From positions 17,886 through 81,885 of IMG/VR virus record IMGVR_UViG_3300031551_000001: DNA of 64,000 nucleotides; one strand, given 5' to 3'. Of the stretch, positions 34,725 through 53,567 are shown piece by piece. Source of the stretch: a virus. Under the pieces are notes generated by a model that made no database searches, had not been told where the DNA came from, and worked only from the letters and a program-made list of their open reading frames with translations. The position numbers and the translations under genes were made by a program. Position 1 is the stretch's first letter. Every line of letters starts with the position of its first letter.

Positions 34725-36170
34725 ATGAAACGAATTATTATATTTTTATCATTGTTTTTGTTGGTAATTTCTTGTAAGGCACAAAGCCCCGGCATATTCA
34801 CATTTGTTATTGTGAGGGATTCTGCTGAAATACCAACTGTAAGTATAGAAACCCTTCTTAGTATAACTGGTTGGACTAAAGTAACTGAAGATTTTGTACA
34901 AGATGGTGATACTTTGGAAAATCTTGTTGATAGTATTGATATTGTGACAATGATAGGAAATATTGGTGGGGATGTATTTTTTACCGATACAGTGTCAATT
35001 ATTGCCACAAAAGCGGACACCATTTCTAAGATAGCGACAAAATATGATATTGATTCATTATATTCTTCTCTTTTAATTTATGCTAGGGATAGTGATTGGG
35101 TCTCTACTACGCATGATACTATATTTTTTGATGATGATGGAGATTATTTTATTACTATGGGAGAGAGCGTAAATACACTTTATTTTTATTTTGATGGTGA
35201 AACGGTAACTATGTCTGATGCTTCTGGCGATTATAGTGGTACAATGATAGAATCTGATTATATATTGATAAATGATTCAATTTGTAATCGAACGGAAGGG
35301 CCTGAAGAAATGAATTGTGTTAGTATTGATGATCTTTATACTGTAGTTTCTTCTGGTGGTAGTGGCTCTGTTGATTTTTCAGGTATACCGGACGGAAGAG
35401 TTATTTTCGCAAAAGAAGATACGGCATCATATAGTTCAAATTTTAATTTTTATGATAGTACATTACATTTATCTGTTGATACTGAACAGGAAGATACTGC
35501 TTTATTTATAGAAAATAATGGTTCCGGGGGTATGGATGTTGGAATATCAATTCTCAACACCGGCTCAAAAGGGGTTTATATTAGTCAAACCGCAGGTGTT
35601 GGAGTTGGATTAGATATGGATATTGCTGATGGGACAAGTGCGATTGATATAGATTTAATGGGACAAAATGTTTATGGGGTAAGGGTTAATGCACAAAAAA
35701 CAGGAGAGGCATTTATAACGCAAGATGATGGAGATGATGTTTTTGTAATTGATTCTTCCGGTGGTGTTCACATGGAAGATTCGTTATGGTTAAATGTTTT
35801 AGAGGATGCACAACATGATGAACAATGGTTAGGATTAAGCCACACAAATGCAGTATTTGCTGATTCACTTACTGACGCTGGGTTTGGACTTGCAGATGAA
35901 TTGCTTCCAATTGATGAATATTTAAATAATTTTCAGTATAATGAAAAAACGGGGTTTAATGAGCTTTTATGGAAATACTGGAATGGTAAAGAATATATCT
36001 CTGAATATTCTATTAAAGGAAGGCCAAGTGTCACTATTCAAAAACTTCAATGGGGTATAGAACATTCGTTTCGATATATACAACAATTAGAAGATGAAAA
36101 TATGCGAATGAAAGCAAGAATATATGATATAGAAGAACGATTAAAAACATTAGAATTTAAATTAGAATGA
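34725..36170 (+). CDS. Tail fibre/spike-like protein with signal peptide and C-terminal chaperone-like coiled coil
   Basis: MKRIIIFLSLFLLVISCKA|Q; G-rich beta repeats; ends IEHSFRYIQQLEDEN..MKARI..IEERL, like the tail of S74-type chaperones. Confidence 0.7.
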   Translation: MKRIIIFLSLFLLVISCKAQSPGIFTFVIVRDSAEIPTVSIETLLSITGWTKVTEDFVQDGDTLENLVDSIDIVTMIGNIGGDVFFTDTVSIIATKADTISKIATKYDIDSLYSSLLIYARDSDWVSTTHDTIFFDDDGDYFITMGESVNTLYFYFDGETVTMSDASGDYSGTMIESDYILINDSICNRTEGPEEMNCVSIDDLYTVVSSGGSGSVDFSGIPDGRVIFAKEDTASYSSNFNFYDSTLHLSVDTEQEDTALFIENNGSGGMDVGISILNTGSKGVYISQTAGVGVGLDMDIADGTSAIDIDLMGQNVYGVRVNAQKTGEAFITQDDGDDVFVIDSSGGVHMEDSLWLNVLEDAQHDEQWLGLSHTNAVFADSLTDAGFGLADELLPIDEYLNNFQYNEKTGFNELLWKYWNGKEYISEYSIKGRPSVTIQKLQWGIEHSFRYIQQLEDENMRMKARIYDIEERLKTLEFKLE

Positions 36171-52310: not shown

Positions 52311-53567
52311 ATGTTCACTTCGCTGATAATAAAAATAAAATTAGCGGTATTATTTTTTTTAATATTTTCTTTTTGTCATGCACAAATAGAAACTCTTACA
52401 TTACAATTACCCAAAGACACAATAAAGACAACATCTTCATCTTTGTCGGCACTTATACTTAGTCATGATAAGGTATATGATTTATACAATGATTATGCAG
52501 ATGCTTTGTTTGCAAGAATGGATGTACAGCCAACAGATGAAAGAAAGCGATTAATTTCAAATATGATTGATTCATTACAACTATATTCTATATGGGATAG
52601 TCTTGACATTTTTTATATGTTAGCATCTTATGATGAACAGTCTTCATTATTAAACTGGGTAAGTACTTCATTTAATGCTATAGCATATAATAATCCAGAA
52701 TTTTCAATAGACACGGGTTGGACTGGCAATGGTTCAAACACATATATAAATACAAATTATACTCCGTCAACTGATGCTGTTCATTATAAATTAAATAATG
52801 GAACAATTGGTTGTTATGTTAATAGTAATGAATTGGTAGATAATAAAGCTTTATTTGGAATTAAGGACGGTGTGGCAGGATATGTTGGTGTTTTAGTTAG
52901 AACTTCACCAACTGTTTTTGAAACATATATTAACTCAATAAGCGTAGCGTATTACAATCATGATAGTTATATAACAGGCATGGTGACGCTTAAAAGAAGT
53001 TCTGCGACATCTGTAACAATATATAAAAATCAATTGTATCTAACGGGTAATAATATTCCATCAACAATATTACCAGTTGGAGACGTATATTTATTAACAA
53101 TGAATAATTATGCAGGTAGATTTACAACAAATACATTATCGTCATTTTATATAGCTGGGGGGCTTAGTCATACACAAATTTTAAAATTACATGAATTAAC
53201 AGAGTGGTATTTAGATGAATTAGGAAGCGGGATGGCTTATATGGGTGATGACTCTAATGAATTTTTAGAATTTATGGATAACTTTTACACAGATAACGCT
53301 CCAATTTCAAATATTAGTTATGATATACATTTATTAGGACATTTATATGATGGATGGAGAAATCAAATTGGGAATAAATTATATGATTTATGGCAGTTAA
53401 TAGACTACATTCAATCAAAAAACATTGACATAATTGATTTAGAAACTGGATACGATATTTATAAAAACAAAGAAGAATATGGAGATTATACTATGGGTTA
53501 TCCTTATTATCCATATTATGTAGTAGGTGCAGATAGTTGTGTAAAATTTAGACCAATAATAGAATAA
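52311..53567 (+). CDS. Exported LamG-like tail-fibre-type protein
   Basis: Start refined to MFTSLIIKIKLAVLFFLIFSFCHA|Q; IWD.LD.FY..A...LNW...GWTGNG...YINT lectin-like module. Confidence 0.7.
   Translation: MFTSLIIKIKLAVLFFLIFSFCHAQIETLTLQLPKDTIKTTSSSLSALILSHDKVYDLYNDYADALFARMDVQPTDERKRLISNMIDSLQLYSIWDSLDIFYMLASYDEQSSLLNWVSTSFNAIAYNNPEFSIDTGWTGNGSNTYINTNYTPSTDAVHYKLNNGTIGCYVNSNELVDNKALFGIKDGVAGYVGVLVRTSPTVFETYINSISVAYYNHDSYITGMVTLKRSSATSVTIYKNQLYLTGNNIPSTILPVGDVYLLTMNNYAGRFTTNTLSSFYIAGGLSHTQILKLHELTEWYLDELGSGMAYMGDDSNEFLEFMDNFYTDNAPISNISYDIHLLGHLYDGWRNQIGNKLYDLWQLIDYIQSKNIDIIDLETGYDIYKNKEEYGDYTMGYPYYPYYVVGADSCVKFRPIIE

Follow-up and report, generated by a model that had tools for sequence, protein, structure and literature searches.

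The DNA analysed here (64,000 nucleotides (nt); the window) corresponds to bases 17886–81885 of the single-contig virus record IMGVR_UViG_3300031551_000001, which has 81,885 bp in total. Four genes of its structural region, named after the window positions at which they start (34725, 36167, 51793 and 52311), encode proteins that begin with predicted signal peptides and in part resemble fibres or spikes. Since the fibres of tailed phages are normally assembled in the cytoplasm, fibre-like proteins with secretion signals are unusual. On the plus strand, the window contains, in this order, the genes for TerL (24514), portal (26841), major capsid protein (MCP, 31204; the name was given in an earlier note on this DNA), a protein of 1121 amino acids (aa), a 1630-aa protein and a lysis cassette in which a CHAP endolysin gene is the last. 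TerL and portal were assigned via matches to PHROG families, and the 1121-aa (muzzle or nozzle) protein matched PF25729, the crassvirus muzzle C-terminal domain, with 22.7 bits, under the cut-off of 27 bits. The closest isolates for TerL are Flavobacterium, Cellulophaga, Tenacibaculum and Maribacter phages, with about 24% identity. When 19 structural proteins of the window were searched with phmmer against those of phages crAss001, phi14:2 and the Flavobacterium elemo phage, only the portal found a match (in the elemo phage), so that gene-by-gene synteny cannot be drawn; tblastn searches with MCP, 34725 and P0024 gave no match among isolated phages. The phage appears to be a podophage of the crAss or elemo type, though highly divergent, and its host, by inference, is probably an aquatic member of the Bacteroidota. 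The stretch is present in salt-marsh metagenome runs (2 possible source runs, and 12 others with 0.20–0.39 of the sampled words), all of them dated 2019 and maybe from a single campaign; no RNA datasets were listed as containing it.

The G+C content is constant at 0.35 over the structural block. A terminator-like hairpin marks the 5' boundary of a tightly packed block that extends from 33876 to the muzzle gene and has no internal terminator (Table 1). The junctions within it are short, with a 3-nt gap between 33876 and 34725, an ATGA overlap of the stop codon of 34725 with the start codon of 36167, and a 5-nt gap before 38458. The four genes for exported proteins are late genes co-expressed with those for tail parts, unlike classical morons.

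Table 1. Positions in the window of the four genes, their parts and neighbouring features
Feature	Position	Strand	Description
Terminator-like hairpin	33793..33820	+	11 pairs, 6 of them G-C, T-rich tail; between the capsid-proximal gene 32667-33761 and 33876
33876 protein	33876..34721	+	281 aa, acidic, signal-less, 0 sequons
34725	34725..36170	+	481-aa exported fibre-like protein (predicted), 13 sequons; founding member here of a new family
Signal peptide of 34725	34725..34781	+	19 aa, CKA|Q
C-terminal module of 34725	35712..36167	+	aa 330-481, conserved; beta-rich part and 47-residue helix; predicted parallel homotrimer
36167	36167..38452	+	761 aa: signal peptide, LamG, right-handed beta-helix, C-terminal hydrophobic stretch, KRKR tail
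Signal peptide of 36167	36167..36223	+	19 aa, VNA|Q
LamG/concanavalin-like domain	36365..36817	+	aa 67-217; PF13385, 53.4 bits (cut-off 27.6)
Beta-helix part of 36167	37019..38386	+	aa 285-740; 61% identical to P0005
C-terminal hydrophobic segment and basic tail of 36167	38393..38449	+	aa 743-761; in place of the cadherin, second beta-helix and type IX secretion sorting domain of P0005
51793	51793..52293	+	166 aa, 19-aa signal peptide (GKA|Q), 4 sequons
52311	52311..53567	+	418 aa: 24-aa signal peptide (CHA|Q), conserved mature N-terminus of ~30 aa, domain at aa ~60-305, 110-aa extension
Lysis cassette	53569..54671	+	directly 3' of 52311; 52-aa and 98-aa membrane proteins, 62-aa lipoprotein-like protein, endolysin

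The earlier note had described signal peptides ending in A|Q (the bar marks the cleavage site) at the start of the four genes, and its coordinates and frames were correct. Each protein has a basic start and a hydrophobic core, followed by CKA|Q in 34725, VNA|Q in 36167, GKA|Q in 51793 and CHA|Q in 52311, and all four pass our own crude detector, which consists of a rule for the n, h and c regions plus [AGSC]|Q and was used together with inspection of the sequences (in the reference phages a lipobox Cys was also sought). A genome-wide run on the 110 ATG-started open reading frames (ORFs) of at least 60 aa gave 3 positives, namely 34725, 36167 and a false one, the transposase gene 55734, which arose from an over-long start; 51793 and 52311 were left out of this run by an overlap filter, and both pass when given directly. 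The transposase ORF (55734–57002, 422 aa), located just past the lysis genes, matches the family phrog_506 with an E value of 5.9e-135; because the match starts at residue 26, the start of the ORF is probably placed too far upstream.

A Gln following the site cut by signal peptidase I (SPI) constitutes the Q-rule of PMC5837995 and PMC10653852, which is described as specific for Bacteroidota in PMC5837995. Among the 34 members of the protein family of 34725 (see below), 25 have a hydrophobic N-terminus, and 24 of these carry [AGSC]|Q; of the other 9, 3 are fragments without an initial Met and 3 more appear from inspection to be mis-started. The S-C-K-A-Q motif of 34725 is kept in the distant homologue P0003. 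In addition, a C-terminal hydrophobic helix (about 20 residues in the family members, replacing a free coiled coil) with a basic K/R tail is found in 36167 and in 12 of the 34 members of the family, an arrangement that fits only translocated proteins and hence supports export. Together with the Q-rule peptides, their conservation in the family and a relative of 36167 that is cargo of the type IX secretion system (T9SS), these stop-transfer-like tails give strong support to the export that had been proposed for the four proteins, and from their sequences we consider it very probable that all four are exported by the host.

The family of 34725 has 34 members. Exhaustive phmmer searching gave 33 representatives (E ≤ 0.001), to which a word-indexed search added the sister protein P0002, 80% identical to 34725; the members share only their last ~130 residues. 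In P0002 the N-terminal ~235 and C-terminal ~150 residues match those of 34725 and the middle is replaced. At an E value of 0.01, 34725 has no Pfam hit, and PF13884, the family of the Peptidase S74 chaperones, was matched neither by it nor by any of the 33 family members scanned. A profile search of PDB sequences with the family returned coiled-coil noise only; with the structural model of 34725, Foldseek gave nothing at or below 1e-3 (weak rows of phage hyaluronidase fibres appeared at E ≥ 0.03) and VIA-align gave only coiled-coil rows (Z ≤ 5.3). No relatives came to light when viral contigs were scanned with 34725, P0005, A4 and A5; the scan with A6 gave two weak N-terminal matches, and the locus read, L004, is unrelated. 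Bacterial and archaeal genomes yielded no match to A3 or A1, two narrow peptide patterns having been used for each, so that absence from cells is not implied. The family is thus undescribed, having neither a Pfam family nor an informative PDB sequence match.

In the AlphaFold model of the whole of 34725, only residues ~330–481 are confident (predicted local distance difference test, pLDDT, ~80–97), beta strands being followed by the long helix. When three copies of this module were modelled, the interface score ipSAE was 0.91 in three runs versus 0.00 for the best of three controls, with a partner pLDDT of 89 and a contact agreement of at least 98%. The ipSAE mark was calibrated on solved structures (20 of 30 same-chain pairs versus 1 of 23 single chains), a calibration that is only rough here because our own alignment and three copies were used. 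Trimer prediction had been proposed in the earlier note as a check, and its outcome suggests that the C-terminal module probably trimerises 34725. A unimolecular spanin was also considered for 34725 and its family and was rejected, since 34725 lacks a membrane helix at its C-terminus, the lysis cassette is 17 kb away, a potential lipobox Cys is found in only 8 of the 34 members, and the window has small membrane and lipoprotein-like lysis genes of its own.

The motif for O-glycosylation is given in the available text of PMC8550257 as (D)(S/T)(A/I/L/V/M/T); export is required, and a glycoprotein deprived of its signal peptide stayed cytoplasmic and unglycosylated. We counted sequons of the form D-[ST]-[AILVMT] (D[ST]Phi) and compared the counts with those in 100,000 composition-preserving shuffles of the mature part of each protein, the genome test covering 76 proteins of at least 100 aa. 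All seven counts made by hand in the earlier note were exact (13 for 34725, 5 for 36167, 4 for 51793 and 3 for 52311; in the controls, 0 for MCP, 0 for 33876 and 3 for the muzzle protein). The expected numbers are 3.30 for 34725 (p = 2e-5), 0.87 for 51793 (p = 0.008), 2.99 for 36167 (p = 0.18) and 1.99 for 52311 (p = 0.32), and only 34725 and a 124-aa gene (11730–12104) survive Bonferroni correction among the 76 proteins. The enrichment had been called strong for 34725 and 51793 and modest for the other two: this stands for 34725, was overstated for 51793, which fails correction over the 76 tests, and does not apply to 36167 and 52311, which show none.

The excess in 34725 is specific for the motif. 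None of the control motifs (reversed, E[ST]Phi, N[ST]Phi and D[AG]Phi) exceeds expectation, and the residue after its D-[ST] dipeptides is an allowed one in 13 of 16 cases (binomial 4e-4). Pooled over the genome, the 4 signal-peptide proteins have 25 sequons versus 9.3 expected, and the other 72 proteins have 40 versus 46.4. In the family, the 32 members other than 34725 and P0002 contain 245 sequons versus 72.8 expected (z = 21.5), the observed and expected numbers for the controls being 81/72.6 (reversed), 24/43.8 (E[ST]Phi), 75/70.8 (N[ST]Phi), 49/61.0 (D[AG]Phi) and 76/114.4 (D[ST]-nonPhi). Two sequons of 34725, at D352 and D380, are at least 90% conserved across the C-terminal modules of the family; since these two motifs give at most 64 of the 245 sequons, the excess remains. 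The density in 34725 is 2.7 sequons per 100 aa, versus 0.1–0.7 in the crAss001 fibres gp22–26. The O-glycosylation postulated for the exported proteins thus has statistical support for 34725 and its family, weak support for 51793 and none for 36167 and 52311; we infer from these counts that 34725 and its relatives are likely to be O-glycosylated.

The second gene that survived correction, on the minus strand at 11730–12104, has 5 sequons versus 0.51 expected (p = 8e-5), all within its last 45 residues, and its product has a hydrophobic stretch near the N-terminus without a clean cleavage site or lipobox. The minus strand also carries, at 125–10058, an island of sugar enzymes assigned by Pfam, including a 962-aa fusion of glycosyltransferase (GT) family 11, the fucosyltransferase family, with GT2/GT7C, as well as GT25, a DUF5672 protein, an NAD-dependent epimerase/dehydratase and a metallophosphatase. 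It might, speculatively, modify host surface glycans or the O-glycan added to exported proteins.

In 36167, the right-handed beta-helix matched PF13229 with 35.6 bits (cut-off 25.9). The beta-helix part is closely related to that of P0005, a 1043-aa bacterial protein which, according to precomputed Pfam assignments, has a cadherin domain, a second beta-helix and a T9SS sorting domain (PF18962), and which begins with an SPI-type signal (HA|Q, after an internal Met). In the alignment, the phage copy stops just past the beta-helix, before PF18962; by Pfam, the T9SS sorting domain is absent from all four window proteins. The P0005 locus (L001, 9854–16824) lies on the 89-kb bacterial contig Ga0315547_1000119, next to ORFs that appear from their translations to encode glycosyltransferase-, oxidoreductase- and sugar-transferase-like proteins. 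Adjoining P0005 is a second large signal-peptide protein in which a T9SS-like tail and a LamG-like stretch were recognised by eye. Judged from these genes, this is a bacterial locus for polysaccharide biosynthesis, and the P0005 lineage is a candidate donor or host lineage of the phage beta-helix gene. The gene content of this locus and the alignment indicate a bacterial origin of 36167, as a captured host-type secreted enzyme that is putatively active on polysaccharides.

No family was found for 51793 in the Pfam and PHROG scans, and no homology search of its own was made. For 52311, a longer form starting at 52224 is unlikely because the first residue of the homologue P0064 corresponds to residue 7. 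The domain at aa ~60–305 of 52311 has 26 relatives; among the 17 fetched, signal peptides are present in P0041 and P0064 and absent in 13 A-rich proteins of 252–333 aa. In isolated phages, the domain is held by proteins annotated as 'YapH' or hypothetical in Flavobacterium elemo and Sinorhizobium phages, the elemo copy (259 aa, signal-less) being located just 5' of the lysis genes, a placement like that of 52311. P0064 and P0002 are encoded on one 22.7-kb contig of a sister phage. P0064 has only the signal peptide and ~30 mature residues in common with 52311 (54 of 90 aligned residues are identical, nearly all of them in the first 52), and its remainder, of the LamG type, has a homologue among the signal-peptide proteins of the myophage described below (29% identity, E = 3e-30). 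The AlphaFold model of 52311 has a pLDDT of 49.8, and a PDB profile search returned only a marginal collectin row; ESM Atlas searches with 51793 and 33876 gave scores under 0.8, which are mere leads. Of the fibre- or spike-type bodies that had been read from the sequence, the LamG and beta-helix of 36167 are thus borne out by Pfam matches above the cut-offs and the beta and coiled-coil module of 34725 by a confident model; the low-confidence model of 52311 gave no fold for its body.

We found that an unrelated phage carries the same exported set. G001 (IMGVR_UViG_3300038678_000203; 52,427 bp, CheckV 100% complete) is of the myophage type, with adaptor, portal, minor head protein, Neck1 and protease assigned by PHROG, and sheath, tube and tape measure read from translations only. 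It encodes P0009, a 977-aa member of the 34725 family, followed by an unrelated 754-aa signal-peptide protein which has a beta-helix by eye, no PHROG hit and no detectable relation to the beta-helix protein of the window. An annotated tail fibre, that of Pseudomonas phage Rollin, contains an internal domain to which residues 98–234 of P0009 are similar (34% identity, E = 3e-8); the tail fibre annotated in Roseobacter phage CRP-6 matches these residues more weakly. A run of signal-peptide proteins (137, 128, 314, 157 and 181 aa) is encoded just 5' of the lysis genes, the 181-aa protein being not Q-ending and failing the detector. Six signal-peptide proteins of G001 contain 29 sequons versus 9.2 expected (z = 6.9), and 52 others contain 50 versus 39.8. 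Sequon excess therefore tracks signal peptides across unrelated proteins in both phages. G001 also has signal-less baseplate and fibre candidates. In all, at least 6 signal-peptide proteins were noted in G001 in addition to the structural genes (L013, 6737–9944, minus strand; L014, 6001–6432). Among them are four small Q-rule proteins encoded in a run ahead of the lysis genes and a lipoprotein-like protein of 143 aa with 5 sequons versus 0.59 expected.

Signal peptides, whether with [AGSC]|Q or a lipobox Cys, were found in none of 32 ORFs of the structural region of crAss001, 75 ORFs of the Flavobacterium elemo phage and 47 ORFs of the structural half of phi14:2, a phage whose virion proteins were annotated from tandem mass spectrometry (MS/MS). 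Two phi14:2 genes of the early region, outside the structural module (g001 and g002; L009, 9–1278), code for a Q-rule signal-peptide protein of 85 aa and a lipoprotein-like protein with an OmpA domain.

Variation among strains was examined by placing contigs of four other salt-marsh runs on positions 33000–39500 at 80% likeness. Pieces in the flanks differ from the window by about 1% (7/735 bases over 33876 and 5/464 over 38458), and pieces over the beta-helix by about 5–6% (40/729, 47/759 and 59/1125). Contigs diverge from the window at 36221 or 36231 (X5, X6), the cleavage site of 36167, and rejoin it at 36986 (X4, X5) with a common foreign consensus. In 34725, contigs break at 35093 (X4, X6), and joints within single contigs skip 35093–35361, 35406–35749 and 35444–35805; positions 36255–36905 have little or no cover in these runs, and nothing was concluded from them. 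These data hint at swapping of modules among strains in 34725 and 36167, in agreement with the replaced middle of P0002, and are treated as a hint only because joints of less than 95% likeness may come from other organisms.

The neighbouring gene 33876 has a weak match to a 'tail protein' family of PHROG (phrog_8704, E = 2.1e-5), and it is possible that its product is a conventional fibre or adaptor. Apart from this weak case and the exported set, no fibre, spike or lectin feature was found in the genes of the 24.5–53.5 kb block. In the lysis cassette, the 62-aa protein (54049–54237) has a lipoprotein-like N-terminus, and the CHAP endolysin (54234–54671) matches PF05257 with 30.2 bits. Amid presumed ejected or cargo genes, a 222-aa protein (44793–45461) has a sub-threshold match to the low-molecular-weight phosphotyrosine phosphatases (E = 0.0036; 17.9 versus a cut-off of 23.2 bits).

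We tentatively favour a role of the four proteins in the envelope, or as free proteins, over one as parts of a virion built in the cytoplasm. This choice is based on the membrane-anchored forms within the family, on the separate conventional fibre candidates of G001, and on the lack of signal peptides in the structural proteins examined in the three reference phages; moreover, every exported protein of a tailed phage that we know of is a non-virion protein. It may be envisaged that i) the host Sec system translocates the four late proteins and SPI leaves them with an N-terminal Gln, so that they would fold and act outside the cytoplasm, ii) 34725 forms a trimeric fibre-like protein in which the C-terminal beta and coiled-coil module would set the three chains in register, a stop-transfer helix filling the same end role in relatives, iii) the body of 34725 and its family may have been selected for many D-S/T-hydrophobic sites, the target of periplasmic O-glycosylation, iv) a host-type beta-helix enzyme would have been captured as 36167 and refitted with LamG and a hydrophobic C-terminal tail in place of the T9SS sorting domain, and v) the proteins would be periplasmic or tethered to the inner membrane until freed at lysis, when they could bind or cut the surface polysaccharide or receptor of their own host. 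The outcome could be superinfection exclusion, or progeny could be kept off the debris.

Several observations weigh against this role. The proteins resemble receptor-binding hardware and not the known small exclusion proteins, and their genes lie within the late structural block, roughly where phi14:2 has fibres and a pectate lyase verified by mass spectrometry, a region (24.5–53.5 kb) in which there is no other receptor-binding candidate except the weak 33876. They also evolve as fibres do, with 34725 keeping its N-terminal third and C-terminal module and exchanging the middle, and 52311 keeping only the signal peptide and ~30 residues with P0064, the distal part being different. The sequon excess is absent in 36167 and 52311. 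Finally, the exchange of coiled coil and membrane anchor within the family suggests that the C-terminus may merely be an assembly device.

The proteins might instead be virion appendages assembled from the periplasm, as the earlier note had proposed; they would be exported, trimerised and O-glycosylated and would dock on the particles when holin lesions merge the compartments, a reading that we regard as possible, if somewhat doubtful. Docking could involve the conserved N-terminal segments, perhaps with 33876, and in the membrane-anchored relatives a cleavage near the C-terminal module would be needed. In phage lambda, holin lesions join cytoplasm and periplasm before the outer membrane fails, which might provide the route. 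The fibre- or spike-type bodies fit such a role, as do the domain that P0009 has in common with the annotated Rollin and CRP-6 tail fibres and the translational packing of the genes between those of the capsid and of the ring and muzzle, in a block without another clear receptor-binding gene. With its N-terminus and C-terminal trimerisation module conserved and its middle variable, 34725 resembles tailspikes that have C-terminal chaperones, the N-terminal module of 52311 is kept while its distal domain is swapped, and strain variation is concentrated in 34725 and 36167, as compared with flanks that include 33876. The strong sequon excess would suit a long-lived extracellular protein. However, the anchored forms (36167 with its tail, and 12 of the 34 family members) could leave the membrane only after a cleavage, for which no catalytic motif was found; in G001, conventional fibre candidates without signal peptides occur beside the exported set; the fibres of crAss001, phi14:2 and the elemo phage are signal-less; and we know of no tailed phage with Sec-exported virion proteins. 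The corresponding generalisation, that some tailed phages of Bacteroidota build their host-recognition appendages in the periplasm, where these would be Sec-exported, capped by pyroglutamate, trimerised, O-glycosylated by the host and fitted at holin lesions, is rather doubtful.

Alternatively, the proteins might cross the outer membrane and be displayed on the infected cell as adhesins or shields, as had also been suggested in the earlier note. P0005, the bacterial homologue of 36167, is T9SS cargo, and Cys17 of 34725, like the Cys of 8 of the 34 family members, could be read as that of a lipobox. However, no outer-membrane sorting signal is present in the copies of the window, the phage beta-helix having lost the sorting domain of its relative; most family members have an SPI-type [AGS]|Q and no Cys, and the residues past Cys17 are not acidic, as they need to be in surface lipoproteins of Bacteroidota. 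We consider display on the cell surface improbable. It is still less probable that the hydrophobic N-termini are unused for export and the proteins are ordinary cytoplasmic fibres with sequons as a habit of their fold, as the conserved motifs at D352 and D380, which could be structural, might suggest, because docking does not explain small residues at -3 and -1 with Gln at +1 in 24 members, stop-transfer helices accompany the signal peptides, N[ST]Phi and reversed motifs are not enriched, sequon excess follows signal peptides in two phages, and crAss001 fibres are poor in sequons.

Exported proteins encoded by phages have been known as small accessory factors. Here, secretion signals are found on genes that look and evolve like receptor-binding hardware, with a strong, motif-specific sequon excess in one family. 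If the envelope role is true, a new class of exclusion or release factors, large and glycosylated, would be defined for the phages of Bacteroidota. If they are instead virion parts, they would be the first appendages of tailed phages routed via the periplasm and decorated by the protein glycosylation of the host, and virions would carry host-made O-glycans, which would matter for the host range of Bacteroidota phages from the gut and the environment, for the stability of their particles and for their recognition by the immune system. In either case, the 34-member family, with its signal peptide, sequons, trimerising C-terminal module and interchangeable membrane anchor, offers a testable handle.

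Beta-helix and lectin types such as those of the window occur in the structural block of other Bacteroidota podophages, in gp22–26 of crAss001 and g080–g087 of phi14:2, which include a pectate lyase; unlike the window set, these have no signal peptide, and no sequence similarity to them was detected. The crAss001 fibres dock by their N-termini, and signal peptides, lipoproteins and glycosylation are unmentioned in the available sections of the structural atlas (PMC10172136); the docking N-terminus of gp22 is not signal-like in sequence. Like the window proteins, the S-layer proteins TfsA and TfsB of Tannerella forsythia are Sec-exported and have many D-S/T-hydrophobic sites, which are used by the general O-glycosylation system, according to the parts available of PMC8550257; they differ from the window proteins in being cellular T9SS cargo, whereas the window proteins are phage-encoded and their glycosylation is predicted. 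Prophages of Porphyromonas gingivalis encode five Q-rule signal-peptide proteins of unknown function, which were read as host-modifying and as users of general secretion; as in the window, SPI cleavage is predicted to expose Gln in phage-encoded proteins, and unlike in the window, the genes are not described, in the accessible text of PMC10367356, as resembling fibres or spikes, as lying in a structural operon or as rich in sequons. A paper on BACON repeats uses none of the terms signal peptide, lipoprotein, secreted, periplasm and export, and the phage targets of diversity-generating retroelements in a paper on Hankyphage have no signal peptides. Exported or O-glycosylated phage proteins of the fibre type were absent among the matches listed in a literature search on phage tail fibres, signal peptides and Bacteroidota O-glycosylation.

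The tailspikes and fibres with Peptidase S74, such as the K1F endosialidase and the L-shaped fibre of T5, have a C-terminal intramolecular chaperone, and the known examples are cytoplasmic. 34725 resembles them in its conserved C-terminal trimerisation module and N-terminal part with exchangeable bodies, and differs in having no PF13884 match and no Lys five residues past the conserved Ser; the fold searches described above gave no match. Lom and Bor of lambda, Llp of T5 and Cor of phi80 likewise have a signal peptide or lipoprotein signal; their genes adjoin those for tail fibres or receptor-binding proteins, and they target the envelope or the receptor of the infected cell. These are small, single-domain proteins, often with their own promoter, whereas the window proteins have 166–761 aa, are predicted to be trimeric or enzymatic, are encoded by translationally packed late genes and appear to be adapted in their sequons.

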